Positions 1 through 42,691 of a DNA stretch of 64,000 bases are shown piece by piece. The stretch covers positions 201,311-265,310 of the forward strand of contig QPGO01000034.1 of NCBI GenBank assembly GCA_008632985.1, written 5' to 3'. Source of the DNA: Psammoneis japonica. Taxonomy: Eukaryota. The notes beneath the pieces are model-generated. The model ran no database searches and was not told where the DNA came from. It worked only from the letters and a program-made list of their open reading frames with translations. The stretch's first letter is position 1. Every line of letters begins with the position of its first letter. A program made the position numbers and the translations under genes.

Positions 1-1580
1 TCTTCCGTCCGTCTTCATTTCATTTTTGAAGTTCATCGGCATGTGCGTATGGTCCAAAGAGAAAGGTTTATGGGGAAAACGAATTAACGAGTTTTGGGTA
101 CCTATGGTACGGAATACGGAAAGGTAATCTTTGTATTTGATAAACGGCTGGGTTTTGTGTATTGTACCTTGTGGATTCGAGACTATGACGAAAGAGTATC
201 TTCTTGAACAATTTCTTTTCAAAAACCCATGAAAGCCAAATTTATATGCTTAAATTTCTGAGTCTCAAAGGTTGAGAGCATCCGAACGCCATGCTGAGTG
301 TTTGCCATCTCGCGGACAGTACTCCTCGATGGCAGTATTTCTGAATTGATGGGTGCTAGATGAAAACTGCTATTAGAAAGGCAGTTGGAGGAGTTTTTCG
401 TTAGCAACGAGCGTGAATCTCACCGCCCGATTGCTAGTAGGCTCCACCAAACGATGTCGTGTGTGTTTGACGCTCTTCCTCCAGTAACCTGATCCCGCTA
501 ACCTTGGTTGTGTGTGACGTGTAGGTGACGTTGAAGCGAAGATGGTCCGGCCAGTCGGTCAAAGCCTGTACTGGATGTAGAACGAAACTGCTTAGGGAAT
601 CTACAACGCCCGAACCAGCAACACTATTGCTTTTGAATTCATTACTCGAACTGTAAGGTATTTCTCTTGCCTGTTTTGTCATCGTCGTTGGAAGACTTTT
701 GCATCCTTTTTCGGCTCTGTATAAATGAGACATATGGAGACCTTCATGCGGATGCAATATGAATGTCATACTTTGACAAGGGAGGGGTTTCATTAGCAAT
801 TGTGCCACTTTTGCTTTTGCGGAAAATGTGTTTGCGTCGATTGCTTCACGGGCAGCCGCTATGCACAGTCTTTGTGTGTGCTGCTTGTTTGCTTTGGTGG
901 CAAGCCCCAACGGCCAATTGTCAGTCCTCCGCCCTAAATCTTTCTTTCTCGGTGCTCATCAATGTCAGGGATATACAAACTGATGGAAAGTCTTTCTCGA
1001 CAGTTCGAAAAGCAGGTCTCGGGATTATTGACGACACACCTCTGTCCCACTTTTTGATGCGCTGCCGCGATGGTGCTGCTCAAGTCGTAGCCAAACGCAC
1101 ATTGGACTCTCTCCAATTGGCGAAAGCGAATTTGCAGCAGTCCGACGATGCAAAGTTGTGTTGGACTTGATCGGCCGCTTTTGGAGCGACCCGAGTGAGA
1201 TTCCTAGAAACGGCACTTGGGATGGCTCGCCTACAAGATATTGAAACGATTGCTGAAGCCATTGACTCAAATGGCTAGTCTGAAACGTAAAAAATTAGGA
1301 TCAGAGATGCGCGTAGAGTTGGCAGGAATCTATGCCTAAGCCAGGGATGGGAGAACGAAGTTTCAAATTTTACGTTCATCATACGAAACGAAATCAGTAG
1401 GATAGTTCAGTAGATAGGATATTTCAAATTATCTCGTAAGTCTTCCAAAATGTGAGGTTCTGCCATTAGATTATTCAATCGACGATGAGGCTGGTTTCTC
1501 TTTTCATCCTTTTTTCTAATGAAACTGGAGGTTCAATCACAAATAACATGTTTCACGATCTTCTCGCTCGGAGTGTCTTT

Positions 1581-2377
1581 TTAATACACAACCGGACTAA
1601 TGGGCGCTGCTCTTTCGAAGAAAGGAGAATTAATATATGCTTCCCATAGCACAAGAAGAAAGATACCTATCCATGCGCCTGCCTCCAAAACCTAAAGTTG
1701 GGTAGGCGGCTCAGAAGTGAGGGTCGAACGAATGATATCTGACAACATCTAATTCCGCCCACGTTAGACAATCAACAAACCTTGACGGGATCGAGATTTC
1801 CATCCTTAACAAGCTCTCCTACAAATGGGAAGGGTGGTAAAGACGACAAAATATCACTCTGCTCCTCTTCTTTCTCGGCGATTGCAGCAGCCCTCCTCGC
1901 TTCCTGTCGAGCTCTCTTTTTGCCCATTTTCGGGGTTCCCAAGTCAGATGGCGCATCGCGGAAGTCCCCTAAATTTGGTAGCTCCATTTCCGGTTCATCA
2001 AATTTCATCTTTGATTCTAGTGAACGGTCTGAAATCAGTTCATCCACTGTAACCTGTCCAATCGGCTTGACTGGAGTCGACCTCTCGAGAGGAGCGCTGC
2101 TCTTAAGTGTCGGTTCCTCAATCCCGTCATCAAAGTCGAAGTCAGGGAGCTCATCTGAAGAGGACATGATACTGTCTTCGTCTGCGGATGGTGACGGAGT
2201 CTGCTTCCTGCGGCGGCGTTTCTTCGCCATGTTCATGATCGTGCATGGATCAGCCGCACGTGGTGTCTCGATAAGCCGCGCCCTCTGTTTCAACAGCAAC
2301 TGCGACGAGAAACCATCGCACCTAGCAATGAGACGAAGAAGCAGGACTGCCACCAGAGCACAGGATTTACGCATCAT
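1581..2377 (-). CDS. Hypothetical protein, probably plastid-targeted, with a C-terminal membrane segment (2 exons)
   Basis: ORF MMRKSCALVAVLLL..CDG-F resembles a signal peptide plus ASAFAP-like Phe. GT-AG intron 1780..1692 joins in frame to VLEAGAWIGIFLLVLWEAYINSPFFERAAPISPVVY* ending at 1581. Confidence 0.75.
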
Positions 2378-2925
2378 GTTATTATCTAACATTTTGATGT
2401 TGAAATAAGTGCGTTGTCCAGTTGGCGGCGCTCTCTGCTTCGCTCCAGCTTCAACACTCCTCGCTCGGAAGGCCTATGATGATTCCCGCGCGCTTTTTTG
2501 ATTTTTGCGGTTGAATGACATAGCGCCGCGGGCTGTGACAACCGACGACGCGCGCGCGAGGGTGCGAGAAATGCATGATGTGGAGACTCTACCGGTGCCG
2601 GTGCGACTCCTCGTGTGCGTGTGCCTGCTGCTGCCTGCGTTGGGGCCCAAAAAGATTGGCAGGCATGTGGTTGGAAAGGGCAAGACCAACATTGAGGCTG
2701 AGAAGCTGGGTGCCCCCCATGATTGGGGAGTTGAGGTGAAATGGGAGGAACCAAAGCAGTCAGGAGAGAGAGCTGTTTCCAGGTGACGGCGGCTTTGGGC
2801 AAGGAGGTCAGCCGAGAGTGAAGACACTCTGCCGCTCAGAAAAGATGAAAGTGCGCAGGGGTGGGAAAAGTCAGAAGGATCAGTCCAGGGAGACTTGGGA
2901 GGAGGGGCTGGGCAAGAAGCAGAAA

Positions 2926-2957
2926 TGTTGTTGTTGTTGTTGTTGCTGCTGCTGCTG
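2926..2957. repeat. (TGT)n(TGC)n microsatellite
   Basis: Direct reading of the sequence. Confidence 0.9.
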
Positions 2958-3004
2958 GGAGGGGGGGCAAACCAGCGTGTGTGTGCAGAGGGCAGGAAGA
3001 TGGC

Positions 3005-3230
3005 TGGGTGGAAGAAAACAACAACTCCTCACTGCTGTCTAAACAGCAGATGAGTCTCCATGCAGAGACCATTGCAGGAGCCAAAAGACTGGTGTCACGA
3101 TGTCAGTGCAACTGTTGTTGTTCTTGTGAGCCGAGTGGTGGCTCGAAAGCAAGCTGAGCTGAGCGGCACACGGAACTGAGGGCACACACAATTGTGTGTG
3201 ATGAACCAAAATCTTGTTCAAATCCTGTCA
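3005..3230 (-). repeat. 3' LTR of the Copia element
   Basis: Aligns by eye along its length with 10580-10804; TGACAGGATTT...CCACCCA on minus strand. Confidence 0.88.
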
Positions 3231-4503
3231 CTCTGCTCTAGTTTGCTTGAAAAGTCCACAGCAACAGATTCAAGGTCAGATTGGTTGAAAGCCTTGGGAT
3301 TGAAGTTCCAAAACATCAGAGGACGGAGGAGAGGTTCCAGACCTGGGAGCAGCCCCAGTGCTTGCTGAGAGTGTCAGCCGGGTTGCGGGAACCTTCGATG
3401 AAATGAAACTCAAGGAAACCAGAGGCAATCACCTCACACATGCAATGGAACAAGAGGGTGGTGTGTTGCTTGTGTAACTTGGAGTGCAGGACAGTGGCAC
3501 TGTCCACAACTGACTTGTTGTTCCCGAACATGTGACACATGTCACGCATGGGGATGCCAAGGCAACGCAAAGTGATGCGCAGATCAACGATTCTGTTCAA
3601 CAACTGTTGCTTGTTTCTTGGAGAACCAATCAACTGGAAACTTGTTGAGGAAAGAGTGTCCAGTGAGCATGTGACAGAGAACAAGTTTGCATCAAGAACA
3701 CAGTGGGTCATGGTGATGAACTTGCCAAGTGGCTTGGGCGCATCATGGGGAAGGAGCTCTTCTGCCTTGCCACACATGGATTGAGCCCAGTCACACACGG
3801 GCTTGGGGAGGTCCGAACAGCTGGGTTCCTCCGTGCACACTCAGAGGGCACCATGTTGCATCTTGGACAAGAATCTGAGGACATGTTTGGCGTGATCCAG
3901 ATGACCTTGACGGGGTGCTGCACAGAAGCCACACAGGGACATGGCGGCTGCAGTGATGTCAATGCAACCAAGCAACACAGCCCATTGCAGAGAACAAACC
4001 AAGGACTGGAGTTGATGGATGCCATTGGGTTCAAGCAATTTGGAGGTGTCAAGCTCAGGGTGGTCTCCCTTCTTGAGAGGGGAAAGCACGTCAGTGCGAG
4101 GCTTCTCCCCAAAGAGACAAGAGACGTGCACACAGTTGTCAACCATGCACTCAATGCACTTGTGTGGAGCAAGGCACAGGGTGCCATTGGAATCACGGGT
4201 GATGTTGCAGCCAAGGTGGAACTCCAATGGTCTGGTGCCCTTCAGCTTCAACCTGCATTTCTCTGTGAGAGTGTCTGCAAAAGCTTGGGGGTTCTTCATG
4301 GCAAAGGCTGGGTCATCCACATGCTCTGCCATGTGTTTGCAGTGGTCACCATTCTGGCACAACCAGATGTCAAATCAGCACGGCATGGCGAGATGCCTTT
4401 GGCACACAAGCAATTGGCAAAGGGTTCATGCCACCTGAGACTGGAGCTGCAGAGTCCACACAAGGCCTTGTGGATGACAAGGATGTGTCCTTCCAGCTCA
4501 CCA

Positions 4504-4957
4504 AACAATGGCAATCTTTTGTGCCATGTGGTCATGTGAAAAAATGCGCAGAAATTGTGCAGACCTGCACCCAAGAGAAATGTCAACATGTCTGTCTGTC
4601 TGCCCTCAGTGAATTTTAATTCTGCGAAAAATGGACTTTGCTGCCAACTGATCAGGCACATTTTAGAACAACACATTTGCAGAAATGCGCCTGATCAGTT
4701 AGCAGCAAAGTCCATTTTTGCACAAGTTTTGAGAAGACGACAGTTTTGGTGCAAAAATGTGTAGATTCAACTGATCAGGCGCATTTTGGAACAACACATT
4801 TGCAGAAATGCACCTGATCAGTTAGCAGCAAAGTCTGTTTTTGCACAAGTTTTGAGCAGACAACATCTTTGGTGCAAAAATGTGTGGATTCTGCAAACGT
4901 CCTCAAGCAATTTGTTGGTTTTGTGTTGCGGGTCATTTTTGAAAGATTCTCATTGTT
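4504..4957. mobile_element. MITE-like insertion in the Copia RT
   Basis: Splits the RT motif AGP|FGELEG. Imperfect terminal inverted repeats AACAATGGCAATCTTT / AAAGATTCTCATTGTT; internal ~124-bp tandem duplication. Confidence 0.7.
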
Positions 4958-7296
4958 GGGGCCAGCCATGATGCACAGCCAGTTTCTCCTTGGCAGCAGC
5001 TTTGAGACAGGCATTGCCAATGTTGGTTGCCCAAGTCTCCAGTTCACTGAGTTTGGCCAGGAAGATCATCAGCTGAAGGCCACAGAGAGACACTGCTCTG
5101 GAGCAGACACTGTTGACGGGCACATCTGTGAGGTGTCCATCGGCAACAAGTCACCCTTTGTGCCATCCGTTGTGTTTGATGTCGCAGACAAGATGCACTC
5201 TCCAATCATCTTGTGTCCTGCTGGGGTGCTGGAGTCCTTGTGGTGTCCGCAATCATGGAAGACCTTGCACTCACAAAGCTGAGTCATCTCAAGGTGGGTT
5301 GCATCTCCCCACTTCTTGTGGTTGCCATTGCACTCGTCAAGTGCCAAGGCATGCTTGCAGTCCCAGGGCACTTCACATCTGTGCTTGTGTTGTGGTGCAG
5401 CACAAAAAAAGCGTGGCTTGCCTTGGTTGGCCATGCGGAACAGCTTCTTCAGGCACAGGGCCACAGCTCAGAAGCATTTCCACCCTTTGGTCTCAAGCAA
5501 ACCATGCTCGAATGAGCAGATGGCACAGGTGATGGGAATGTCCTTGGCAGTGGTGGCAAGGGGTTCAGATGTGATCTCCCCATTCTCCCATTCAAGCATG
5601 ACATCGCAGCTTGAGCCTTTCCAAGAGGGGTCGTGGGGTCTCAACAGTCCTTCATGAAAAAAAGAATGCATCAGAACTTCCAGAGAGCAGAGTCCTTGTC
5701 TTCTTGCTCCATGTGGTGCATGATGTCATTGGCAGAAAGGATTTCCTCACATTCGTCATTGTCAACAGAGCAAATGAATTTGACCAGTTCCAGGTTGTCA
5801 CCAATTTCCCAGCAGCCATGGTCTTCAACTGCCTTGTCAATGCGGGCTCTGCAATGCCATCCATCCTCTTGTGGCTTCATGAGGAAGGTGCGTCCAATGA
5901 TGTCTTTGGGGTCAAAGTCTGGCATGTTGGGCATCCTGGTTGCCTCCCCATCTGGTGAGTCTGGTGAATCCTTGGAGTCGTGTCAGGATTTGATGACAGG
6001 TTCAGCAGATTTTTCATCAGGAGGGTCAAGATGCAAGTTGGAAGCAGACAGGTCACAGGCGGAGTGCATGCATGATTGGCAGAGGATCTTCTGGGTGTTG
6101 TCAGAAAGAATTTTGAACATCATGTGATGACCCATGTGTTTGGCAATGCCAACGAAGCAACCACGCAACTCGTGAGATTCAGATGACCAGCCGGAATCAT
6201 CCAGGTGGCAGCACATGGTTTCCACCGTTGAAAGCAGAGGAGGAGAGGGCTGATGTCGGGGGTGGATCTAGACAGCATTTTGGTGGGATTGCGCCAGCAA
6301 AGCTTGGCAGATGCCGTGTGGTTGAGCACAAACCACCACACGCACAAAAGGGCAAGAAGCCAGGTGCAGGCTGGGGATCCAAAGTGGTCTATGATGGTGT
6401 TGGCCATGTTCTTCACAGTTTGGCAGTGGCAGCAAGCAAAATTCTGGTGCTGTTGGTGGAGCTCGCTTTGCCAACTAGAGATGAAAAGGGCACAAAGGAT
6501 GCCAAGAACCTTGTTGCTGATCTAAATCTGGTGAGCACGATCGCTGATGAGCTTGGATGGAGCACCACGGTTGCGAGTGTTGTCTTTGAGCGTTTTGACG
6601 AATTCCTTGTCAGTCTTGGTGCCACACACATCCATGATGAGGGATTCTGTGCCAATCAAGAGCTGTGTGCTGACACATCTGGAGTCAATGGCAGGGATGT
6701 CAGAGCAGACTGTGTCAGCGGCAACGGGTTCATTGTGTTGGACATTGAGGGCTGGGTTGGGTGACTTGCATGCCTTTTTCAGGTGTGTGCTGGCAAGCAT
6801 GCAGGTGCACTGCGTCATGCAGTCAAAAGTGTGGTGAATGGTGTCCTTTGGGAGGAAGCCAAAACAAGGGTGGAGGGTCTCACAGTCGGGATCCTTGGGG
6901 TTGATCTTGCACTCTTGGCATTTGTGGAAGAAATCAGACATCAGAAAATTGCATTGTTGATGACATGTTGGCGACAATGGTTGCCAAACTCATCAAAGAG
7001 GTTGGCAGTTGGGTCATCTTGGAGGTCGGACACTGCATCACACCATGTCTTGTCTTTGGTGAACTGGCAGTTGAGGACAGATGGGCCCCATGTGTCATTG
7101 CCAGTGAGGACAACATGAGGCAGAGTGTCCCATTTGGCATTGGTGTGTGCGGGTGCATGGCAACATGCAGCAGGCCACCTTTGATGTTGATGGGGATGGC
7201 ACATCCATCAATGGTGGTGATGCACTGCAGGCCATTGGGAACCTTGATCAACCAATCATTGACATCATGTTTGCACCACTCGAGTTGGCCACAAGA

Positions 7297-8220
7297 AAAG
7301 AAGCTCAAAATCTGTTTTGCCGCTGCCTTGCTGCCGCCCACACCAACACCAACCATGGTGGACCCGTGCTCCCCAGTGCCCGTAAAGAGTGGCAGGGACA
7401 ATTTGACAGCCATTTGATTCATTGTCAAAGAACAATGCCTGTTGGATGTCACAGTTCAAAGTCGAAATGGCAACTGACCGGATGCTTGTCACATGGCAAA
7501 CACAGTTGCTGTGCCTCAAAGAATGGACAAGCCCAGCCACACACCACATGGGAGACACCAAAAATGAACACTGCAGAAACCAAACATGTGTCCATCTCCA
7601 AAGACAACATGCTTGAAGAGAATGTGAGAGAAATTCCTGGGATGAAAACATCCAAGAAAGACCAACATGGACCCCAACAAAGGAAAGGAAAAAATGATGA
7701 TTGGGATCATCGGGTGAAAATTCTGTCATGCATGATGGAATTGCACAGAAATTGTGCACTGAAGCTGCAACATCAAAGTGCAAGAGAAGCAAACACCATG
7801 ACTTGGAAATGCTGTCCACTTGGAAGACTTGTGAAGACCCACTTTGGGACACCACAGAAAATCCATCACAAACAACTGCAGTGCATTGGAAGAAAACTCA
7901 GAGGAAGCACATTGCTGAGAAACAAGAGGACAAACCTGACATGGTCATTGACTTGAAATTCTGGCTGAGCGCATGGAAATGCACATGAAATTTGTGCAGA
8001 AGGAACTGACTTGGAAATTGCTGAGTTGCGCAGAATTTTGTGTAGAAAAGACACTGAAATTGGAAGAAAATGCAAAGAGATGCAACACCATGGTGGTGCC
8101 GCACCTCCTGAATGCTGGCACAACAGAGTGTCCCTTCCAACACCTTTGGTTTTTCTGTCATTGGCGCAACTGCCTGGTGTCCCAAAGTGGACAACCCCAT
8201 GGGTGCTTGTGCAGAATTGT
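7297..8220. mobile_element. Unclassified ~0.92-kb insertion in Copia pol with 15-bp target-site duplication
   Basis: GAGTTGGCCACAAGA occurs at 7282-7296 and 8221-8235; removing the insert plus one copy restores ..HSCGQLEW.. of pol. Confidence 0.7.
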
Positions 8221-10579
8221 GAGTTGGCCACAAGAGTGTGTGGTCTTGCCCTTTCCAGTGCAGGCACGCTGGTGTGAAGAATGGCAATGATGGGTCCACG
8301 TTGTGTGTGTGTCACACCACTGGCAGCAACAATGGGGGTGTTGACAAGCTGGTGGTCATCAACACCCTGCACATCAACCTGGTGATCAGCGTGGGCCATG
8401 ACACAAACATCATCACCAGCAACACCACCCTTTGTGCCACAATCCATGAGAGCACCCTTGCAAGTTGAGTTGTGTGTCAAGGCAGAGCAGACAACATTGT
8501 GGTTGTTGACACAATGGCAAGTGTGACCATCAATCTCAATGTCAGTGGCAGCATCACAGAAGGATGTTGATCCAGAGGAGGTTTCTTGCCAGAGTGGGCC
8601 AAGGGTGGCTTGTCAAGTGCAAGGAGATGTTGCAAGTCACCAGGTGGCAGAGGCTTGTGCCTGGTGAGGTGCGCCAGGATGGGGTCAGCATCAGCTGCAT
8701 CAGATGCAGTGTTGGGTGGTTTGGGGACCGGCGCAAGATCGCGAGCATTGGCAGACAAGTTGACACCACCATCACTGCCCAGACAGAGGTTGTGCAGGTT
8801 GACTGCTGTTGAGTCATGGCAGTTGCCGGTGTGGGCAGTGCACAAGCCAAGAATGATGTTCTTGGTGGACTGAGGCAGATCTGGTGGGATGCAATGCCAT
8901 TGTTCCCTGGTGAGGGAGGAGGTGCCATGAGTCTGTGCAGCATGAGCTTGGATGGCATCAATGTCACTGTTGATGTCAAAGAATGCATCATCATCAGGGT
9001 CATTGGGGGCCAGGTCATGGGTGCAAATGGCATGGCGTGTGTGTGTGGGGTGCATGAGGCCATTTTCTTGGGGGTGAACATGCTGTTGCGCTGTGCCGCC
9101 ACGGAAAGCAGGAGCCCACAACGTTGCTTGTATGAAAGGCTTGCACCATTCTGTGTGCGACACTGGCTGGCTTGGTTCTTTGCCAAATGGAGTTCTTTGA
9201 TGGGGTGAATGGCATTCTCAAGCATGATGCATTTCTGGCTGGCAGAAAAGTGGTCCGCAGTTGGGATCAGAGCTTCATGCAGAGTTGGCTCTGCCAGTGA
9301 AGTGTGAAGGCATGGGTGGAGCCTTTCCAGGTGCTGTCACCAAGGCAAGCAGTGGCAAGGCAGTGAGGCACATGAGAAGGGTTGATGACTCAAGGGATGC
9401 ACAAGTGGATGCAAAGGTGCACTTGGACAGTTTGTGGCACACTGCTTGAGCATCAGAGGGGCCAACATGTTCACAAATGAGTGCCTTGCCTTTGTCATTT
9501 TGCAAGATGCATTTGAACATGGCAAACATGTGCTTCAGTTGTTTGGCAAACAGGGCCTTGTGCTCAGCTGTGGAGGGCTTGTTGTGTGTTGGATCAAGGA
9601 TGCGGTCAATGTCCTGAGAGCAGGGCCTGTGTGACAATGGAGGTGTGCCATGTGTGCCACGTTTGCCATTGTTTCTGGGACTTGAGAGTTGCGAAGGTGA
9701 GTGGATCACATTTGATGCCTCGTTTGAAGTCATGCCTGGGGTCACGTGATTTTGGGGGCAATGAGCCAGGTGCAGGAGAGCAGATGGTGCTGCACCCATG
9801 GAGACAGATGCTGTGTGCTTGGGACTGTGATGACAGTCAGCAAATTCTTCATGTGTGAACAAGGCGGTGTTGTTGCTGATGTCCATGCCTCTGCATGCAT
9901 TTGCCATGTGCAAACTAATTAGAGCAGCTGTCTGTGCTTTGTGTCCACGTGGCAAGGGCGTTTGATTGGTGCTGTCATTGTGAACCAGGGCATCAAGTTG
10001 CATCAGAGCAAACGTGAAGAGATCCTGGCATGAGTCTGTCCTGTCAATGCTGAGGGCACAGCACAATGGACTGTCCACAGCTTGGTTCAGAACAGTGCCT
10101 AAAATGTGCTCAAAGTCATTGGTTTGTTGCTGTCTGGTGAAGACCATGGTGCAACTGAGCAGGGTGTCGCAACTTGAGTTGGAGGATGGGCTCAAGTTAA
10201 CTTGAAGCTTGACTTAAAACTTGACTTGAAGTCTTGAACTGTCTTGCAAATCAGAAGCCACCAGGCTGTGACATCCTGTTTGTAGCTAAATGCCAAGCTT
10301 CCTGTCCAGCCCACAGAGTTGTGCCGGCACACCCAAACCCACAGCTGGCAGGAATTCCTGAGTGAACAAGTGTCCATTGAATGGATGTGTTTGGTGATGA
10401 AAGTCCTTGAACAGATCAACATGTGTCAATTGAATCCAACATCTGGCAGTGAGAAAGGTGGGGGCATGCACTTCCACCTCCAACAATGTGCATCGTTGAA
10501 AAATTTCTTGATGACAATGATGAATGCTCAATGGATGGAAATGAGCAAGACTGTTGATCTGACAAAAAATGAAGATGAC

Positions 10580-10804
10580 TGGGTGGAAGAAAACAATGAC
10601 TCCTTGCTGCTGTCTAAATGGCAGATGAGTCTCCATGCAGAGACCATTGCAGGAGCCGAAAGACTGGTGTCATGACATTGGTGCTGCTGTCATTGTTTTT
10701 GTGAGCTGAGTGGCTCAAAAGCAAGCTGCATTGCATGTTGCATGCAGAACAAACAACACACACAATTGTGTGTGACAAACCAAAATCATGTTCAAATCCT
10801 GTCA
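10580..10804 (-). repeat. 5' LTR of the Copia element
   Basis: Aligns with 3005-3230. Confidence 0.88.
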
Positions 10805-13800
10805 TGAGCAGCGATGTTGATGGCAAGGATGGTGTGTGCTCAGAAGGAGGGGCTTTGGGAGAGGTGGAGCTGGGTGCAAGTTCAATGCCAGCATCATCAG
10901 GCCTTTTAAGAAGGCAGTCCGAAAGGAGACTGGTGGGCTCAAGAAAGACATGGTGGCAGGATTGGCAAAGGCTGGAGAGAGGAGGGCAAGGACAGTTTGT
11001 GTGAGGACAGTGTGGATGGCATGTCCAGGATTTGATTGGATGGGGGGCCGACTGCATCCTCCTTCTCTGGCCCATCTGCCCACACTGCCAATCTTGCCTT
11101 TTTCATGGCTGCCTCTGCTGCCCTCCATCAAACTCCATCCACTCCACCCTTCTGCACTGCATTTTCTAAAAATGCACCCTCACAGGCCTTGCTTTGTGCC
11201 TTGTGCACTGCAAAATTCAGTGATCAACAAAAGAGCAGGTTGCAAAGATTGCTGTGGACAACAACTGCAAAACCACTTTTGAGTCAGCACTGCATGCTGT
11301 GAAGTGTTTGGTGGTTGCACAGATTTTGTGCTGGTGCACATGTGCAGATCACTTGACCTGCCAGCAAACAACAAGTTTTCCACAAGTTCATCTTGGCACC
11401 AGGCAAACATTGCGCAACAAGCATCTTTTTCCTTGAAGTCTTTGCAAGCTTCTTGGCACAAATTCACAGGCCACTTGAAAGTGTGAAATCCTTGAGATGC
11501 AGCCTTCTCACTTGTTGAAGATGATGTGCTGTCATGTCAGCGCATCTGTGCAAGTCATGCAGGTGCATCTTCCTTGGCCACAAACATCTGTGTGGCCAGG
11601 CTTGCTTGAAAACATTGGAAACAACATCAGCACCTCTCCAGCCATGAGCAGGGTCAATCATTGTTGCTGCTCAAAAAAAGAAGTGCAGCATTTTTTTCAC
11701 ATTTTGTTTGATGGCTTGCATGTCATCCCCTGTCAGATCTGCGTGCAAGGTTTCCCATGAAACAATCTCAGCCACCTGCTTCCTGGCAACTGTTTTCAGG
11801 TTGTCTTTTTTTTTCTTCTGACACAATCAGCGTGCACCACAGCTGATGTGCAGTGCCAGCCAAAGTGCTGGTCAACAGATGCTTCTGCTCATGCTCTCCA
11901 CCAGGACAATGGCCCAGCTCCTGAAAAGGGTGACACCAGAGCCAGCTGCCTGACCTGTTTCTGCAATGACTTTGACAAGACAACAATTTTGTCTTGTGAT
12001 TTCTTCTCCACAAAAAAAAAACTGTGTGCAAAGTGCTTGTTTGTGTGTGCAGGCTGTCTGCAATGGGTGCTCCTCATCCTTTCACTGTTGAGTTTAAATT
12101 TTCTTTAAGCCAGCACAGGGGCCATTTTGATTTTCTTGTTTGCCTCTGCTGCAAAAGCCTTGTGCAGCAGCAAAGAACAAATTTCTGGCACATTCATGAC
12201 CTGATTGGGTTGCAGTCAGCCTCCAAAGGTGAGCCAAGGTTGAGATGACTCAACACACAAGCAACTGGTCAAATTGCTTGGGTCTGCATTCTTTGCATGT
12301 CAAGCACCACAGTCCGTGCAACAGCTGGCACACCAGGTGCTTTGCGTGTGTGGTTTTTGTGGCCAGCAATGTGCAGGGTCATCTGTTGGTGGCCAAGGAG
12401 GGCACTCCTGAATTTTTTCATTGTTTCCCATGTCATCTCAAGCAATCACTCTGTTTCATCTGTCATCGCACAGCTCAGCTGAGTGCTGTCATTGAGATTT
12501 CTGTTGCAAAAGGCTGTGTTTGTCAACCATCTTGTGATGCCACTGCTCCAAAAATTGACACCTGGTTGCACCAGCATGCACTCTTTGAAAAGTTTGTCAG
12601 CAAAATCCCAACAAGCACACAAACAAACACAATCTCTTGCTTGGTGCTTCATGGCACAGCCAAATCTGACAAAACCTTGGCTTGTTGGTGCACCAACTTT
12701 GAGTTCTGCATCTTAAAGGCTCTTTTGAGAACCGCTGCATTGTCAAGCTTCTCAAAATGGTCTGAGAAAGCCCCCTTTGTTGAGCAAGAAAGTCATCTGT
12801 GTGCATGTGAACAGAAGACAAATCTTAAAATGGGCTGGACACTTTCTCTTGAAATGTGCCTCAGGTGCCACACAAGCCTGCCAGTGGGGGCAAACATTGC
12901 ATCTCATGATGCATTCTCCATGGAAAAATCAAACTGCAAAGCTTCTGCCAGGCATCACATTGAGCTGAACACAGCAGTGCTCCCCACATCCAAATCAAGA
13001 AAAGCAGCTCACTGAAAGACCTCAAGCTTTGCCCTTGGTGCGCCATGTCTGAAGAAGAAAGTCAACAAAGAAAAAGAAGTTTGGGTGCTGGGAATTTGAG
13101 TCTAAAAATCATGAGATTGTCTGGCCCCTTTGCAGCACTTTTCCACAACCTGCAGTCAACCATGGTGCCAAATGTGCTGTGCGTTCACAGCTCTCAGCAT
13201 TGTCAAGCAAACTGACATGACCGGGAAGAACTCTGTTGGTTTCTGCAGTGCTCCAACTGGATGCATTTTGATTGCACTGTGATCAGCTGCTTGCATTTTG
13301 TGGGCTCAATCAAATGCCAGTCACGCACATGACAGTGCGCACTCACACTCTGTCCAGACATCCATGCACCACCATGTGGAACAGACTCTGTTGTGCAATC
13401 ACCATGTTGCGCAGCTGCATCAGATCACCATCACAGTCAACAAAACACAAAATCCATTTTTAAGGCGCTGCTGTGCTTCTACTCTGCAACTCCGGCAACA
13501 AGCTGGCAGGTGATGCCGTGCCAAAGTAATTGGCAATTGTGCATGTTCCTTGCAACACCAAATGTTTTGCCTTGTGGATGCTGGATTTAAACATGGGTCG
13601 AACAACAGCCAACCAGTTTTGGAGCCTGTGAGTGGAGTGAGTGAGGTGCTCCTCTCAACAGAATTGAAAAGTTCTGCTCGGTCCTTGGCCAAGCAGTTGC
13701 CAGACCAAGAGTGAGTGTGTGGCCTTGACCTCTGCCTTGGTGTCCTGATGCTGCACTGATTTGCTGGTCTCAGAATTGCAACCATGGATGGCATCATTGT

Positions 13801-16800
13801 GTTGGTCCCATGATTCCCACCGCTGGTTCCATGTGTGGCTGCAGACAGTTGCAGCACAGTCAACTCCAGAGGTGTCACAATCTAGAGTTGCAACCATCTT
13901 CAAGTGATCAAGGTGCACATTGTTCCAAAAGAAGGAAAAGTGACCATTGAAAGGGTGTCATCACAGTCAACATCCAGCATGTGCTCAGAGCTGCACTCAT
14001 CATTTTGCAGGGTTGAGGAGCAGGACACAACTCAGCTCTGTTCTTGAGCCAAGTGTGGCAAGATGGTCTCCCTCTTCCAACACTCGCCTGAGGTGCCGCC
14101 ATCAAACAATGGTCTGTGCTTCATTTTTAGGGCAGCAAAAAGTTTTTTTGCTTTTGAAGATTACCCTGGCTTTTGGTGTTTTCAGCAACTTGAGGCAAAT
14201 CTACCACAGGTTGCATTTCACCATGACAGGAGGAATGGCCAACATTTTCTGAAGCACATTTCCAAATTTTTTGTTTTCTGGCAGCACTTGCACTCTCACA
14301 GGCAGTTCACCACACTGACCTTTGGCTGTCCAATGACTTGTTTGGAAAAGACAACACCATTTTGTTGAGATAGATTTCAATGTGTCTTGTCAGACAATCA
14401 TGTCACAGTTGATGAGCTTGCCCTTGTGTGAACAGGCTGATTTGTTTCAACACACTGCAGCTTCAGACACATTCTGATGACAACCTCATTTCAGTGTTGC
14501 ATTTTTTTAAGCCAGCAACTGCACTCTGTCCAGTGTGACTCTGTAGAATGTTTTTGCCAAAGCTCTTTGCAATGCTGGTTATCCATCAATGTGCAACAAG
14601 TGCTGTCACCTGGTGGAGCTCTCAAAATTTTTGTTTTGCCCTTGCCATGTGGGGTTGGCATTCAAGGCTGCAAACAAAACAGCCATGGCATGTTTCTGCA
14701 GCAGCTTGTGCACCTGGTTGATGCTCACCTTTCTGTTTTTCTTTTTTCTTAGAACCCTGGAAGAGAGCAGGCAGAAGAACAACTCTCTTTGTCAGCATGG
14801 TCACAGCTGCTGGCAATGCAGTGCACACGACATTGCCAAAATTTGTTGTTGACTTTGGTGGACATCTCTGCACACTTGCACATGCAATGGCGTTGATGTG
14901 CCTTGTGCACTGTGCTTTGTTGACAAACAAAAAAGCAGGTCACAAAGATCGCTGTTGGCAATCATTGTTGTGGTCATCAGACTGTTCTGAGTTGGCACGT
15001 TCTGCTGTGAAAGATTTGGTCACAGCAAGGGATCAACCTCACACATGTGCTTGTCTGAGTTTGTTCCAGGCTCATTTTGGTGCTTGGTGTGTGCTGTGCA
15101 GCACACATGTCTTTGTGTGTGAAGTCATTGCATGCATGTGGCATGGCTTCAAAGGGTGGCCAAGACTTCAATCCTTGCAGTGCAGCTTTGTTCACAGATG
15201 ACACAAAGCCATGCCAGTGCATGCATCTGGCTGCTCAGTGGCCTGTGGAGTGCAAGCCATGCAGGGCACAACACATGCACCACATTTGTGTTGTGCACTT
15301 GGTGCTTTCCGGCTGACTTCTGTTGAGGACTCCTGGCCATTTGTGTCCCTCTGACCGCCCCTCTCCAGCTGCAGCTGACAAAAAAATTCTGTGGATGGAA
15401 ATTTGCCACTTGGCTTTACAGATTTTGTGACATGCCTCAATGTTGTGCATCAACATGACAAATGTTTTGTTCAAATTGTGCAGTGCAGGGGCAACTGGTT
15501 GTTCCTGAGGGGCCCCATTTTGATTGCTGCTGTTTGCCACATCAAGAGCAGGCAAATCTTGCCAATGAGTGTCAACTTTTAACTCCTCTGCACTCACTGG
15601 GCTTGGCAGAGGATGACTCAACACAAGCAACCAGCTAGATGGAACACAGACAACACAACATGTTCCATGCCTGACACTTCCCAACCCAAACAAGAACCAG
15701 ACACAATGGCGGCACTGTTTTCAAAACACTCTGTCACAACGACAGGTCAGAGCAAACAGAAGATCACCAACATCTTGCAAGTGACCACTGCACAGCCAAG
15801 GTCACCTGTGCCATCTGTCCAGGCCTTCAACAGCCCCCCCAGGTTGATCCAGCAAAAGCAGCACCCCCCTTTGTCCAGCCAAATGAGCTCAGTTCTTGGG
15901 GCTGTGCCCTGCCTTGAGCACATCCTCATTTGAGAGCCCCTCTGCATTTGCTGCTGGTGCAGGAGCATCAGGGGAACAATCAACTTCCCAAGCTTTTGCA
16001 TCAAGAGAAGTCCTGAGGACCAGCAGCAGTTCAATCCATCACTGGCAATTGGCCCAGCTTTGGGGGATTCACCATGCACAGAAACCTTGCAGTAAAAAGA
16101 ACAGGAAGGTGACTGGAGAGAAAAAACCAACAATCAGATGATGTCAAATTGAGACCACCAACCCTGTTTTGATCACATTGAGGGGTCCTCAGAAGTGCCA
16201 CCCACCGCCAAATGCATCTGATGTTCAGAGCAATTTTTGGCAAGATGTCAGAGTGTCTCACAAAAAGTCACACAAATGTCTCACACTCAGCACACACAAA
16301 ATGAAGTTGCACATCTGATGTCACTTGGAGCAAAACAGCAGCTGCTCACAGCAATTTGCTCAAATTTTGGTGGTGAAAGAAGGGTTGACACTGAAACAAT
16401 CAAACAACACTTTGCACCTTGCTGCACCAGCATCACCCAAGCACTTTTGTTGCTCTCCCTCTTTCCTCACTCTGTGAAACAAGGCAAGAGCATCTTGAGG
16501 GAGAGGGGCACCACACACCAGGGTTGTCAAACCAGCCACACAAGCAGATTGCCAATGCATGAAAGTCACGAACAATGTGCCAGACAAGCAGCACATTTTG
16601 CTGACACAGTGCTTCACAAAGTGAGCACAACAGGGTCAGCAGTGTTTGCAGCATGTCTTGCTGCAGCACACATTTTTGTCAGAGGGGGCACTGCTTTTTG
16701 CTTGTGGTGGCATGGCATTGCATGTGTCTCCTGCAAGATGGCACTGTGAGGCCAATGGCAAAGTGCTTTCTGTGCAAGGCATGGCACAGTGCTGCACATC

Positions 16801-19560
16801 ACATGATGTGTGCTTCCACCACCTCCCAAGAGACAAAGGAGAGGGGCCGCAAACCATGCATTCTCTGCTCAAAAAGTGCGCTGCCCCCAAGCAACATTTT
16901 GCTGATGCACAGCAGATTGCTGCCAGTGCTGCTGTCACAAATGTTTGCAAATGTGCCACCTGTCATGTGCTGTCAGGAAGAGCACTGCTGCTGCTCACAT
17001 GTGCAGACAAATGAGCCCCATGTGGCAAAAAGCTGCACCCAGGGAAGTGCTTGCACACCACGGCAGGAGCACCAGCTGCTTGATGCTCAGCAGCAACAAG
17101 TGGCCTGCATGCTTTTCTTCAACAAGCTTTTGCCTTGTGCACACAAACTTGAAGTGTGAGCAGCAGACAGCAGAGCAAAGTCTTGTGTGTTGAAAGAGCT
17201 GAAGGCTCTTGTGTGGGGCTTGTGGTCAGCTGCTGGCAGTGCTTGGGGTGCTTTGTTTTTTGGCAAGTGGGCAGCACATCGCCAACTTGCCCAGGGCAAT
17301 TGTTTGCATGTGGGCTGCCATGCACTGCTCAGCACTCAGCATTGTGGGAACAAGGCGGCTCCCCTGCAACAGTGTGCAGATTGTCATTTTGCTGGCAGCA
17401 GCTGCTGCTCACTGCCCCCACGTGCATGTTTCTTAAAGGAGGGAGTGTCTGACCTTCATCAAGGGTCAACTCCTCAAACGGAAAATTCTTTGGGCCAGTT
17501 GGTGACCGTTTGAATTTAGCGGTGAGTGAAGCAAGCCTCAGTGCACAAAAGTGACCCAGATGTTAAATCTTGAGTTTGTTGAAAGCACCGCGACATCACA
17601 TTGTTGCGACGGTTGTTGTCAATCAACCACGGCACCTTTGGCGCAAGTCACAGAACACAACATCAACATCACTCCTGTTTCTTTTTTCATTCTCAACAAT
17701 GTTTCCACAATCTGTCCAACAAGCTTGGCCACATTTTGTGTCAACGAGAGTGTTGTGGATTTGTGGTTTTGTCAAAGTGTGCCAAAAAACCGATTGTGCG
17801 ATTCGAGACAGGTCAGTGCTGTTTTGATTGTCAGCGGTGCTTTCACCACTTTTCTCACTTCTTTTTTGTTTTTCATCAATGTTTTTTGCAGAAAATTCAA
17901 AGACATGGAACATTTTTGTGGCAATCTACAATCTGCTGCACCACTTTTGGGAAGAGCAGCATTGCTGGAGGCACATGTGATTGGTGTGTTGGGGACAAGG
18001 CATCATGTGATGGCAACACTCTGTGGTGGAAATGCAGGTGGCACTTGTGACAGAAAGGCAAACAGCTGTGGGAGGAAGTGAAACATGAGAAGATGGGGTG
18101 GAATCATTGCAAGCAGGGACATCCTGCTGGCCGCAACAGTGGCATGGCATTGACTGGTTCCTTGGCAGCACGTGCAGGCAAGCTTCCTCCAGCCACACTT
18201 TGTCAGCAACTCCTGGTGAGTGGGAGAGAGGGAGTGCACTCTCGTTGGTCATTCTCGTCCTCTCTGGCCTCTCGACTCCACTGCCTTTTTGCCGGCAATG
18301 CTCTGCGGATGTGGCAGCTGGAGAGCAGATTGATGAGAAAATGCACAGGGCCCCACCTTGTTGTGACAAATTGACCTGCAAGCTTGCTCTAATCTGATGG
18401 AACTTGATGACCGATGCGTTGCCTTGGTGGTGTGCCCTGCTGCCACATCAAGATTTGTTTTCATCATCAACAATGAAAAACAGAAGAAAGCTGCTTGGTC
18501 GAACTGTCCACTTTTTGAAGAGACTGCTGCAGACTGTGCCTGGAACACACTCACCCACCTGTTTTCTGCATTTGCCATGGCTGAGGCGCACCAGAAACAA
18601 CTCAACTCACTTGCAGCATCAGCTCAAATCACATTTCTCCATTCAAAATTCTGCTTCATGGGCCAAAGCACAGGATTTTTTTCATGGAATGACAACCATG
18701 TCAGCAAAAGCAAATTGACAACACCGTGGCTGACAACCCGCATTGTTTTGCATCTTAAAGCAAAAACTGAGATTGCTGGCACTTGCACCTTCCCTGCTCT
18801 CATCACAAGCACCATGCGCCAAATGACTTGAGTTTCATGTGGCCGCATGGAGCCAAACAGATCTCGCCATCAACCAATCTGGAGAGCAACAACAACCCAG
18901 CAGAGACATCACTGCAATCGGCGTTGCTCGCTGACACAGCGAGCGTCTGGTGGAGCTGAGCAACACTTGTGGTGCAAAAGCCAGAATTGTTTGTGATGCG
19001 AAAGCTGGGGTGCAGCGTGGTTTCAAACAGGGCTTTCTCTTTGACAGCCCCCCCCCCCCTTGCTCACCTCGAAAGAAACTCTTTCCACTTCCCATGAGGA
19101 GCCACAGCAGTGCGAGGCCATCTCCAGCACCTTTCCTGGTGCCGCCGTTGCTGCCATGTTTGCTGGCCATGGCGAAGAGTGTGGCCGCAATCGGCACTGT
19201 CTGACAGCAATCGGCGCTGTCTGACAATGTGCTGTGTTTCGTTGGCCTTTTCTTTTTTAAAAATTTGGATGTGATGGACATGTCTCGCACAAATGCAGCA
19301 ATGCTGCTTTTCTGCAAATTGGCCACATCCACAAAAGAGAAGCAATTTGTTGTTGCGATTTTCCAGAGGTCCAGAAAACCAGCAGCATCGGAATGTCTGC
19401 AGGTCAACCCGAGGTTGCCCCAAGTGATGTCCGTTGAGAAGGGTTGTGCGAACACAAACCACCAACTGGCACGAAAAGCTTGCCCCTCAAACAGTGTGTC
19501 CTCCTGAAACCGTTCCGGCATTGAAGACATTTGTCGAGAACCTGCTTGATGCCTTGCCAA
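10805..19560. other. TpA/CpG-depleted decayed sequence of unidentified (probably repeat/TE) origin
   Basis: Same TG/CA-rich composition as the adjacent Copia; no protein motif I can recognise with confidence. Confidence 0.55.
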
Positions 19561-19777
19561 CGGTCGTACATAGAATTGGCAGACAACACACGAATGCACA
19601 TTGACTTGCGCACGCACGCACCGGCCGTGCCGGCCGTGCCCACTGACGATGATGAAGATTGGTCATTGTACACTGATGACCGGGTCACGCACACGGGCAT
19701 TATGACACTTGCATCCTCAGAGTTTTCCACTCGGCTCACAATTGTGAGCCAAAGCACAAGTAAAGCCGATAACGACA

Positions 19778-20635
19778 ATGAAATCCGAATTACAAACGTC
19801 GGTGAAGGACGTTGCTATCAAGCAACCGGTGAAGAAAGCGAAGAAAACGGTAAGACGCCGCTGGCGTAAACAACCGGATAAACCAAAACGCCCTTTATCT
19901 GCTTATAACTTTTTCTTTCACATGGAGCGTGAAAAAATTGTGCTAGAAGCAACTGGTGTTTCTGAAACACAGGGGGTGCCTCCTGAAGCTCTTGCAGCCG
20001 TTCTCAAGGAGAGAAGCCGTCGCCCTCATCGCAAGTCTCACGGGAAGATAGGATTCATTTCCCTTGCGCGCACAGTTGCTGCCAAGTGGAAAACTCTCGA
20101 GCCTGAGAAGAAAGCTCCGTTCGAGGAACAAGCCAGGAAAGAGAAAGAACGGTACCGCAAAGAGATCGCAGAGTGGAAAAAGGTTCAAGAAGCTCGCAAG
20201 AAGGAGGAGGCCAAGTCCAACGTTCCGGTTACACCGCCGGAGATCAAGCCCGACACGAAGAAACAAGTTGAACTACACTCCCTCGGAAAGATGAACAGTC
20301 AGACCACCTTGGATGACCTGTATCACCACCGAAGCATTTCTGGCGAGTCGACCCCCGAGATGAGTGAGGAGCCTACCATTCAGGCATCTGCCTGGTCTAA
20401 CCAGGTCGGCCTCAACTTGTATGAGGGATACAATGACATCCTTCTTGGTAAGAACTTCGCAAAGGACGAACATTTGCGATCAAGAGCTGCTCCAGCAATC
20501 ATGAGCTGTGTAGAGGACTTGGCTTCGGAGCTTGATGAAGACTGCTTCGACCTTCTATCCGCATTTCGAACCAGGCAGGTAGTTCAAACAGTTCCTGAGA
20601 CTAGCTACTTTCCTTCGGGAATGATGTTGTGGTGA
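19778..20635 (+). CDS. HMG-box DNA-binding protein
   Basis: DKPKRPLSAYNFFF..ER, RPHRKSHGKIGFISLARTVAAKWKTL..KAPFEEQARKEKERY. Confidence 0.92.
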   Translation: MKSELQTSVKDVAIKQPVKKAKKTVRRRWRKQPDKPKRPLSAYNFFFHMEREKIVLEATGVSETQGVPPEALAAVLKERSRRPHRKSHGKIGFISLARTVAAKWKTLEPEKKAPFEEQARKEKERYRKEIAEWKKVQEARKKEEAKSNVPVTPPEIKPDTKKQVELHSLGKMNSQTTLDDLYHHRSISGESTPEMSEEPTIQASAWSNQVGLNLYEGYNDILLGKNFAKDEHLRSRAAPAIMSCVEDLASELDEDCFDLLSAFRTRQVVQTVPETSYFPSGMMLW

Positions 20636-21239
20636 AGATCAGTAAGAGGGCACGGGGTCTGTTGTCACAAGCATTGTTCAAGTATTTTGGCATAACAATT
20701 TGTAACAGTTAAAACTTTTGAATCTAAAGAATAAGAATAGCGCTTTTCTGACATTGTTTGGGGGATTGTTCGACCGGTTTCGTCGTAACGCTGTCTCACT
20801 GGATTCGCATGGCATGGGAGAGTGCTCAAGATGATAATTCAAGATGTTTGAGGGAGGCCAATTTCGCTGTGGAAATGACCCGTTGCGGACATTTCTGTTT
20901 CTTTTGATATATCTAAGCCCTTTCGAACAAATCGACTTTGTCAACGCTTGTGAATATCATCTTTCTACGAGGGTGATTGTCCGTCAGAGGTCATTCTGTG
21001 GGGCGTTAGTAAAGCTGAAGTCTTATTGTACAACTTTGTATCATACCGGTATGCTTTGTACACTACTTCGTAATTGTATGTACTACTGTACCGTAACCGG
21101 TACAAGGACGTACAGTATTTATTATTTATTTGCCGGTGCTGAATAAATGAAATAAAAAGGAATGGAATAAGGAATTCTTTTCCGATCAAGACGAGAGCTG
21201 CAACACAGAAAAGCATGTCGGCGGGGTCGTGTCGTCGTC

Positions 21240-26907: not shown

Positions 26908-27129
26908 TTTCTATGTGTTATCTTTGTGCGACGTGTAATCGTGGCAAGCACCTCAGGGTTTTGTTGACTTCTTGTTCGAAGCTCTTCACACACCGCTCTC
27001 TCTGTTTGTGCGAAGTCGTCTGTTGTCGCTGTCGCAACATGCGTGCCAGTAGAGCGCTCAACGCACGCTTACATATCCTCCTACGGAGGTTCTCACGTAC
27101 GTAGAAGATGGTATAAGAGAATTAAGGTA

Positions 27130-28699: not shown

Positions 28700-29283
28700 G
28701 ATATTCTCACAACTTTGTTCTGAGCGCTCAGTATTGTACGGGTCTGCAACTGAAGCTTTGATTATCTGTCTGTTCCATGTACACGGGAAGCCTACACTGC
28801 TCCCCACCTTGGTCTCGTTGTTCTTCTCCGGTAAATAGACTGAATCTGCAGGCCGCCTGAGCAACCTTCTCTTTTTTCGCTCTTCTTCCGCGTTTCGCGT
28901 TCCTGTCTTCATGCGATCATCGCATGCATGCGATGCATGCATCGATGATGTTCACGCGCACGCAGTTGCTCTTCGCGTTTGTTTGGGGGGGACGACTCTG
29001 GACAGCTTCTGTCCAAAGAAGCTCTGTCCTACAGTGCGTTTGGGTGTTTTGGTAATACAATTTTCACGTACCTACGAGAAAGCGCACTGATTGACAGACT
29101 CTCACAGTACAGAAGCGGTAAGGTGTCCGTACATCAACCGTGCTCCCGTATTTTTCTTTTTTTTTTCTTTTTTGTGTCTGCCTGCCTGCATGGATCATTC
29201 GTCACTCAAAATACCTTAGATCTGATCCAAGTACAGTATCATCGTATTGTTCTCGATCTAAACCATTTATTGCAGTCGTTATC

Positions 29284-35826: not shown

Positions 35827-36209
35827 GTCAAACGCGACATTCTCACTCAGGGTTCGCTGCTGTCAGTTGTGATTCCAAGACCGGTGATTCGTCGGTGGCG
35901 CTAAGTTAAGTTGTTGACTCGCTGCGATCAAAGCGGCGCAGCGGTCATCGTCATCGTGTTCGCTAATTTCTAATTTCTTGAGCTTCTTTTCTGGTTTCTG
36001 ACTTTTTTCGGTCCGTGCGTTGGTCGTTTGGCTTGCGCGTCGGTCTGGCCACACAGATACTGTACCGTATGGGCAGACGGCAGGACACACATACAGATAC
36101 CGGTAGTACATCGTCCGTCTGTCTGTCCTAGGTCTGTCGGCGCCACCTCGCACTGAGCACCTCGTGATCCAAAAAAGCACCGCAGCACCGCACTTCCGAC
36201 GACTTCACC

Positions 36210-40779: not shown

Positions 40780-41169
40780 TGTGCACGTCCTGCGTCCTGA
40801 TCTCGGAATTAGTTTTAGGATTTCTTGACTGCGACTCTGGGCCTACGGTACAGCACTTTAGCTACGGTAGTGCGGTACGGTGTGGGCGAGTGGGCCGTCG
40901 CTACTACTCCACTGCCACCACTAGAGTGGAGGCATCCGAGGTGAAAATCTGACGTGTGCATGTGGTGAAAGTGCTGAGCAAGTGTGGTGAATCATCGCGG
41001 CCGCGATGCTGAAAAGAAGACACCATTGCACCACATCATCAAAAGAATGTAAAGAGACATGAGATCACCATCATTAAGATCTACGTTAAAAATCTAAAGC
41101 ACTGGTTTTTAAACACACAATTGCATTGAAACCCCCAAGCAATCTCTCCACGAGTCGTCACCGGTCATC

Positions 41170-42690: not shown

Positions 42691-42691
42691 C

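Follow-up and report, generated by a model that had tools for sequence, protein, structure and literature searches.

The 64,000-nucleotide window analysed here (Psammoneis japonica contig QPGO01000034.1, positions 201,311 to 265,310 of the forward strand; all coordinates below are those of the window) is nuclear DNA of a pennate diatom, in which three islands, at 2600–19560 (a), 41110–54500 (b) and 58380–59420 (c), have been almost completely stripped of the dinucleotide TpA. Inside these domains, long terminal repeat (LTR) elements, satellite and single-copy DNA are affected alike, and the adjacent genes are unaffected. The signature is very probably the product of a process directed to chromatin domains, which would convert A:T to G:C by transition at TpA on both strands, beside the decay of CpG. 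The three islands are a more extreme case of a signature known from one preprint, and no earlier report for diatoms was found.

Composition and limits of the islands

The TpA signature was measured as observed/expected (o/e) ratios in 2-kb windows, as counts per 500 nt and from the exact positions of TA. A preliminary description of this DNA had reported near-absence of TA, with dominance of TG and CA, over ~17 kb, and this is borne out: TpA o/e is 0.04–0.15 in all 2-kb windows of 2001–20000, against 0.49–0.73 in the gene flanks, and TG and CA o/e are 1.5–2.3 within the TA-poor stretch of island a. Across 42001–54000, TpA o/e is 0.03–0.09. Counted per 500 nt, TA occurs 0–5 times in the islands and 8–42 times outside them. 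CpG is also scarce in the same stretch of island a (o/e 0.09–0.59), its loss in the islands being less complete and less even (o/e 0.04–0.8) than that of TA; this depletion, the two further islands and the context rule set out below go beyond the earlier account.

Pooled over the islands (31,390 positions), 107 TA are observed against 1217 expected at flank density (ratio 0.09), and 526 CG against 1862 (ratio 0.28). TA and CG are the only depleted dinucleotides, TG (1.49 of flank) and CA (1.71 of flank) the only enriched ones, and the remaining 12 lie at 0.78–1.22 of flank, including TC (0.78), TT (0.88) and ApA (1.15). Adenine is lost only from TpA, with A in ApA, GpA and other contexts unaffected; a lack of enrichment of A-to-G change at TA, which the preliminary description had named as grounds for abandoning its reading, is therefore not what is seen, only TA and CG being lost. 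The excess of TG and CA (2650) balances the deficit of TA and CG (2446) to within 8%, and the G+C content of the islands is unchanged (0.45–0.55). Pyrimidine–purine (YpR) steps in the islands have in effect all been driven to TG or CA. The raw fraction TG/(TG + CA) is 0.45–0.57 in most island sub-regions and departs from this range only where base composition is skewed; this near-parity of counts indicates that both strands were mutated. An apparent strand bias at 49–53 kb, where TG exceeds CA in o/e, vanishes in raw counts and was set aside as base-composition skew.

The limits of the islands are sharp to ~100 bp. The outermost TA at normal density lie at 2590 on the left and 19567 on the right of island a, the islands end within 100–200 bp of the HMG-box and Beclin reading frames, and the genes that adjoin them have TA o/e of 0.5–0.7.

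Read support was taken from contigs built from the reads of one public run. These contigs, with k-mer depths of ~60–69 and lengths of up to 315 kb, agree with the window: those over 10758–17588 and 18246–20800 have depths of 63–69 (59–60 in the flanks) and 0–10 differences each, 10758–17588 being reproduced with 12 differences in ~6.8 kb, and the contig over 1200–2913 (depth 59) shows 0 differences. The preliminary description had accepted that its reading would fall if reads did not support the sequence; the read-built contigs do support it.

Direction, context and in-place origin of the changes

Island a contains one dead Ty1/Copia element (2994–10804), as follows from a collinear gag–pol remnant and the LTR pair that flanks it. 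Polyprotein P0123 (1881 aa) aligns collinearly by tblastn, residues 1–1868 over 10147–3319 of the minus strand, across several frames and stops; the order gag, integrase, reverse transcriptase (RT), RNase H is that of Ty1/Copia, homologues carry Pfam RVT_2, and the LTRs form a 236-nt direct repeat with TG...CA ends. The 12 full-length Copia polyproteins searched with tblastn match the window at this remnant only, and the copy itself gives no Pfam match in its open reading frames (ORFs) of at least 90 aa. Read depth is 700–9900 over the remnant and up to 36000 in the element, against ~60 for unique DNA, which indicates a family of high copy number in the genome.

The direction of change was read from 553 alignment columns in which at least 6 of 12 intact homologues aligned and at least 60% of them agreed. 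Not one of 25 conserved tyrosines is kept in the Copia remnant: 15 codons are now TGY (Cys), 6 are CAY (His) and 4 are other codons, so that a single transition accounts for 21 of the 25 and other changes for 4 at most. A looser column rule (35 columns) gives 0 Tyr, 19 Cys, 8 His and 8 others. Conserved arginines are kept in 11 of 42 columns, the others reading Cys (13), His (9), Gln (5), stop (2) and Trp (2); these outcomes match CGN to TGN or CAN (31 of 42 columns) and point to CpG decay alongside the TpA process. Of the 17 other residue types, 16 are kept at 56–90%, the remaining one being Met (1 of 4). The intact homologues contain 3.6–5.3% Tyr and ~1% Cys. TAY thus became TGY or CAY in the remnant. 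The preliminary description had quoted five peptide motifs with Cys or His in place of Tyr, all of which are present on the minus strand of the remnant between 3360 and 6716 (HWGC 3360, HVDD 4323, KALCGL 4469, GNACL 5018, DTVCSD 6716), and it had attributed them to a process distinct from deamination of 5-methylcytosine (5mC) that turns TAY into TGY or CAY on both strands; the tyrosine columns uphold this. The objection it had raised against itself, that intact relatives might already have Cys or His at these sites and low TpA, fails as well: related intact elements carry Tyr, and their TpA is ordinary.

The changes arose in the chromosome itself, independently in each copy. The comparison took in six paralogue pairs from the islands, namely the pair of Copia LTRs, two further pairs that are putative LTRs, one tandem pair and two duplications of local extent; together they contain 25 adjacent double mismatches of TG against CA and 0 of TA against CG, a phase of adjacent double transition that is equally likely by chance. 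Such TG-versus-CA doubles imply that ancestral YpR steps mutated independently after the copies had separated. The Copia LTR pair alone has 8 of them in 232 ungapped columns, and 21 of its 37 mismatched columns are YpR changes. In LTR pair A, there are 7 TG/CA doubles, 9 positions with CG against TG or CA and 8 with CG in both copies; these CpG counts predict ~1 discordant double where 7 are seen, so most of the doubles derive from TA. Among the units of the satellite array in island b, the differences are of the same TG/CA kind: 24 listed column pairs have more than one of TG, CA, CG and TA among units, most of them mixing TG with CA and some mixing only CA with surviving CG or TA.

Survival of TA against flank density depends strongly on the flanking bases, being 0.006 for RTAY (4 versus 708 expected, both strands; R, purine; Y, pyrimidine), 0.059 for RTAR and YTAY and 0.28 for YTAR; at the extremes, TTAA survives at 0.79 (68 versus 86 expected) and ATAT at 0 of 162 expected. 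Across the 16 contexts, these survivals are matched with r = 0.98 by an additive per-strand model whose rate depends solely on the nucleotide 3' to the A; its k (–ln survival) is 2.8 for T, 2.0 for C, 0.93 for G and 0.33 for A. This 3' neighbour therefore governs TpA loss, in the order T > C > G >> A, and TTAA largely survives; on the opposite strand, the same rule reads as loss of T unless it is preceded by T. With 80 foreign Copia loci as the baseline, the same context order is found in the Copia element, the single-copy part, island b and island c (few sites).

Two observations bear on tempo. In the least decayed element (49657–52935), TA is at ~0.16 of flank density and CpG at ~0.6, which indicates that the TpA process is faster per site than CpG decay. 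Between the window and the read set, single-copy contigs show 21 differences in ~8.6 kb of island and 0 in ~2.6 kb of flank on the same contigs; the 22 difference events listed for the single-copy part comprise 8 of CG against TG or CA, 4 of TA against TG or CA, 2 TG/CA doubles, 6 other transitions and 2 transversions. These differences suggest that the TpA process is recent or continuing.

Elsewhere, related Copia elements have ordinary TpA. With the remnant frame 3844–4374 (minus strand) as query, a profile-free search through 1.8 billion representative proteins gave 2088 relatives. All 80 related metagenome Copia loci are ordinary in TA (o/e 0.35–1.07), and the 1300 1-kb windows into which they divide have a minimum of 0.20 and a median of 0.69; on the sequences of these loci, low TpA is not a trait of the Copia family. 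Five of them (L040, L054, L065, L075 and L012) have CpG o/e of 0.10–0.28 with ordinary TpA of 0.57–0.66 (L040: CG 0.10, TA 0.57). Copia loci with strong CpG loss thus keep normal TA, and the two processes are separable; judging by their composition, these five loci are cases of methylation decay without the TpA process. The two loci with the lowest TpA (0.20–0.35; L030 and L035) were considered as hypermutated and rejected, their remaining TA having no YTAR bias. Among the best 150 representative homologues of the Copia fragment, by contrast, 12 have <0.5% Tyr, of which 11 lack any Tyr in 101–381 residues, with Cys and His raised; all five of the twelve that were aligned show Cys or His at Tyr sites of intact relatives. 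Tyr-free examples come from an ENA assembly contig (P0165) and from JGI (P0292, 469 aa), and the Tyr-free P0176 keeps 23 Arg in 365 aa, a further sign that TpA loss is separate from CpG decay. The low-Tyr homologues are 38–53% identical to the Copia copy in the window, so that several diverged Copia lineages with the phenomenon are represented in public data.

Known systems, proposed process and rival explanations

The closest described system is that of the chlorarachniophyte Bigelowiella natans (Mettrop et al., 2026 bioRxiv preprint; 10.64898/2026.01.13.699255), so the statement in the preliminary description that no such signature had been described is out of date. Of the 231 mutations that its mutation-accumulation lines showed in two integrated viral regions, 230 were A-to-G or T-to-C, every GC-biased mutation lay at TpA, and rates were ~1000-fold over background; reverse transcriptase and DDE domains were over-represented among TpA-depleted coding sequences (10.64898/2026.01.13.699255). 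The authors propose an ADAT2-like adenine deaminase and cite editing of DNA by the ADAT2 enzymes of amphioxus and of Trypanosoma (10.64898/2026.01.13.699255). The likeness is close: as in that preprint, the target here is TpA only, it becomes TpG or CpA according to the strand, the changes are almost only transitions and they are confined to discrete regions of invading or selfish DNA amid a normal genome. There are also differences. B. natans is a rhizarian in which nucleocytoplasmic large DNA virus (NCLDV) and virophage DNA is affected, whereas here LTR elements, a satellite and single-copy DNA of a stramenopile are; the process was demonstrated there by de novo mutations and is known here from sequence alone; TpA is partly depleted there (Rho 0.45 in the NCLDV region) and close to saturation here (ratio 0.09); and CpG is lost in parallel here, with no CpG decay reported in the preprint's main text. 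The 3'-neighbour rule, with TTAA spared, is visible here and has no counterpart in that main text, in which the words 'diatom', 'trinucleotide' and 'TTAA' are absent and whose supplementary tables may hold flanking bases. No report of TpA hypermutation in diatoms was found in the literature searched, including term look-ups in PMC2806351, PMC9998398 and 10.1101/2025.10.24.684338.

The preliminary description had called the process repeat-targeted and resembling the repeat-induced point mutation (RIP) of fungi. In RIP, CpA/TpG is changed to TpA, GC is lowered and stop codons are made. The resemblance lies in dinucleotide-specific transitions that inactivate transposons in place, make copies diverge and can leak into adjacent unique DNA. 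The chemistry and direction, however, are opposite: no C-to-T change at CpA, creation of TpA or lowering of GC is seen, TpA becomes CpA or TpG with GC unchanged, and TAA and TAG are removed. As to targeting, the signature does lie in transposon islands and not in neighbouring genes, but ~8.7 kb of single-copy DNA (10805–19560) and the single-copy 2600–2913 are equally TA-free. It is thus a chromatin domain, rather than duplication as such, that seems to be targeted, with the limit that in these single-copy stretches (depth 59–69) repeats diverged below 90% identity would count as single-copy. Deamination of 5mC explains the CpG-to-TpG/CpA half of the signature, with CG at 0.28 of flank, and cannot change TA; diatom transposons are CpG-methylated through DNMT5 (PMC9998398).

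Taken together, the islands would be transposon-rich, presumably methylated, silent chromatin in which the chromosome itself has undergone two nearly completed kinds of context-specific transition, namely CpG decay and a faster change at TpA. In the latter, the A:T of 5'-TA-3' would become G:C on either strand independently, giving TG or CA. The agent may be a polynucleotide DNA adenine deaminase, the likeliest candidate, although we give it slightly less than an even chance; recruited to marked chromatin, it would convert A to hypoxanthine, which is read as G. In their natural target, TadA and ADAT2–ADAT3 act on an A that follows a U (position 34 of tRNA, after U33), and we know of no member of this family reported to sweep double-stranded chromosomal domains, nor of any A:T-to-G:C editor of chromosomal DNA with such a context. 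The process may serve as genome defence, in which elements would be inactivated by missense changes (at all Tyr codons and at many Ile, Asn, Lys and Thr codons after T) and by erasure of TA-containing signals; it cannot create TAA or TAG stops and removes them. More speculatively, and as a proposal that we think somewhat more likely to fail than to hold, diatoms would possess a chromatin-guided DNA adenine deaminase that sweeps heterochromatic domains, changes every T-A-(not A) to T-G on both strands, works as a native A-to-G base editor of chromosomal DNA and is shared with chlorarachniophytes, as an old defence, opposite to RIP, found across the SAR (stramenopile–alveolate–rhizarian) lineage.

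Several points weigh against this interpretation or temper it. Sequence data cannot separate deamination of A on one strand from modification of T on the other. The survival ratios are set against flanking genes or foreign Copia and not against an intact copy of the family itself. Read depth was counted at ≥90% identity, and older repeats could have drifted below that, which limits the preference for a domain over a repeat. Purifying selection acting on genes of the flank confounds the excess of differences in island over flank. At old Tyr codons, the 3'-neighbour rule predicts His more often after a purine and Cys more often after a pyrimidine; those after A or G became 8 Cys and 6 His (6/14 His) and those after C or T 11 Cys and 2 His (2/13), an effect of the preceding base that has the predicted direction but, with few sites, is not significant. 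Finally, the reads of the supporting run may come from the very sample that was assembled, and their library type is off record, so that they exclude assembly error more firmly than chemistry-specific read error.

The data are symmetric, and the rule can equally be read as 5'-V-T-A (V, not T), in the order A > G > C >> T before the T. A TET/JBP-type oxidase acting on thymine at TpA in silenced DNA would then yield 5-hydroxymethyl- or 5-formyl-uracil, which mispairs with G and gives T-to-C, seen as TA to CA on the modified strand and as TA to TG from the opposite one; oxidised thymine is mutagenic. In dinoflagellates, which also belong to the SAR lineage, 5-hydroxymethyluracil (5hmU) is made by TET/JBP homologues with a preference for T in TA and TC, and occurs together with 5mC, mostly on repeats and on transposons, which it silences (PMC11572971). 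There, 5hmU is described as an epigenetic mark rather than a cause of mutation, and TC is targeted as well (PMC11572971); in the islands, TpC is not a target comparable with TpA (TC 0.78 and TT 0.88 versus TA 0.09 of flank). In addition, 5hmU itself pairs well with A, and no such modification was found on record for diatoms in the literature searched. We regard thymine oxidation as unlikely.

The remaining explanations fare worse. Because the best-characterised target is an LTR retrotransposon, and because ADAR and ADAT favour U before the edited A (10.64898/2026.01.13.699255), its RNA or cDNA might have been edited before integration by an ADAR/ADAT-like or other deaminase, as APOBEC does to retroviruses. 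Against this, the LTRs of the one Copia element differ at 8 TG/CA sites, both strands are mutated about equally rather than the transcribed strand before integration, as ADAR-type hyperediting would have it, the satellite, the single-copy DNA and the unique flank at 2600–2913 carry the same signature, the limits are those of the domain and not of the elements, and TA-versus-TG/CA differences separate two near-identical genomes at single-copy sites; we give this explanation very little credence. The preliminary description had also put forward error-prone repair by Pol eta, whose WA-to-WG signature (W, A or T) would be brought to methylated chromatin. The WA motifs include TA, and Pol eta errs most often by A-to-G, but the other WA motif, ApA, is not depleted (1.15 of flank), 21 of 25 Tyr codons were changed by a single transition with transversions nearly absent, and, to our knowledge, neither a strong 3'-neighbour rule nor near-total saturation is a feature of this polymerase. 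Pol eta is accordingly disfavoured, and we rate it lower still. As for artefact or native composition, that is, modified bases that cause systematic errors in reads or assembly, or foreign DNA in which TA was never present, the uncertain origin of the supporting run speaks for it; the agreement of read-derived contigs with the window, the protein polarity (Tyr to Cys or His; Arg to Cys, His or Gln), the copy-specific TG/CA choices of paralogues, the sharp limits with normal flanks and the Tyr-free Copia proteins in other public assemblies leave it with hardly any probability at all.

If the chromatin-directed TpA process is enzymatic, it represents a naturally occurring editor that turns A:T into G:C in chromosomal DNA within a defined three-base context, relevant both to genome defence and to base editing. 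The T-A-(not A) rule is a new mechanistic clue, and extension of the phenomenon from one rhizarian alga to diatoms, which are major and genetically tractable phytoplankton, makes a hunt for the enzyme practical. There are also consequences for annotation. Hypermutated elements escape domain-based annotation, LTR-divergence dating is inflated by the YpR changes that make up 21 of the 37 Copia LTR mismatches, and repeat content is under-counted where the process has taken copies of one family down to ~82–89% identity.

Contents of the islands and surrounding DNA

The features are listed in Table 1. Apart from the 140-bp GC-rich satellite, island b holds two direct-repeat pairs 3.3–3.6 kb apart (putative LTRs) and further DNA, with no detectable pol in the 3.9-kb element between the LTR A copies. 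A Pfam scan of 178 stop-to-stop ORFs of at least 90 aa in or overlapping the islands gave the flanking Beclin/APG6 as the sole match above cut-off; the 174 ORFs within the three islands gave none, and weak below-cut-off matches in four ORFs were taken as chance. Non-Copia island parts gave 0 tblastx matches to the 80 metagenome Copia loci, and 10805–19560 in particular contains no Pfam match, no tblastx match to these loci and no recognisable coding remnant.

Table 1. Positions of the islands and of the features within them
Feature	Position	Strand	Observations
Island a, TpA-erased, CpG-poor	2600–19560		56 TA in 2500–19500
Copia-flanking DNA inside island a, G-rich, with microsatellites	2600–2993		Single-copy up to 2913; 0 TA between 2591 and 3039
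3' LTR of dead Copia	2994–3230	–	Aligns to 10571–10804 at 82%
Copia gag–pol remnant, several frames, in-frame stops	3284–10147	–	tblastn with 12 polyproteins
5' LTR of Copia	10569–10804	–	LTR pair alignment; read depth 36030 in bin 10356–11009
TA-less single-copy DNA	10805–19560		Read-set contigs, depth 63–69, 10758–17588 and 18246–19560, 0–10 differences each
Island b, TpA-erased	41110–54500		47 TA in 41100–54500; TA density normal up to 41110 and again from 54506
GC-rich tandem array, ~140-bp units	41384–42700		Tandem Repeats Finder (TRF) period 140, 5.6 copies, 79% matches
Direct repeat B, copy 1	45234–45797		87% identity to 48558–49053; 8 TG/CA doubles
Direct repeat B, copy 2	48558–49053		Partner of 45234–45797
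Putative LTR A, copy 1, 3.9-kb element	49326–49656		88.6% identity to 52936–53267
Putative LTR A, copy 2	52936–53267		Partner of 49326–49656
Island c, 1-kb patch, same signature	58380–59420		6 TA and 12 CG in 1041 nt; between TA-rich intergenic DNA

Within the Copia remnant, a 123-bp tandem duplication (4645–4891) lies between the RT and integrase parts. Its copies differ by CA/CG, by TA/TG and at one TG/CA site, and the duplication thus predates part of the hypermutation.

At the gene-proximal edges, CpG recovers before TA, at 18800 versus 19560 in island a and at 54350 versus 54500 in island b; in the edge stretches 18800–19560 and 54000–54500, TA is nearly nil and CpG is back to o/e 0.4–0.6. 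Either the TpA process reaches beyond CpG decay at these edges, or it is simply faster there. The left limit of island a is marked by a run of CG repeats at 2543–2557 within a CpG-dense stretch (2487–2638), which lies between the last TA at normal density (2590) and the CpG-poor interior. On both sides of island c, the DNA is unusually rich in TA, at 58014–58183 (a TA every 3–13 bases) and at 59511–59899 (denser than elsewhere), which makes the contrast abrupt. Just outside island b, a direct repeat pair (40194–40326 and 40628–40779) is ~87% identical, differs mainly by indels and has TA and CG intact, which indicates that a nearby duplication of ~140 bp alone does not attract the process.

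The flanks of the islands are occupied by genes with long open frames, encoding a Suf/CstF-77-like protein (36168–39215), a PPR protein, a POT/PTR2 transporter, a protein kinase, two DUF6824 proteins, Beclin/APG6, an HMG-box protein, CobW, SRR1 and PP2A-type HEAT repeats. The best relatives of the POT transporter are 60% identical, and the named ones among the 120 listed are all from pennate diatoms (Cylindrotheca, Fistulifera, Seminavis, Amphora and a Bacillariaceae metagenome-assembled genome), relatives on which a reading of the window as raphid pennate nuclear DNA was based. The DUF6824 domains occur one each in two neighbouring minus-strand frames, 26398–26910 and 27587–28951 (E 8e-32 and 2e-29).

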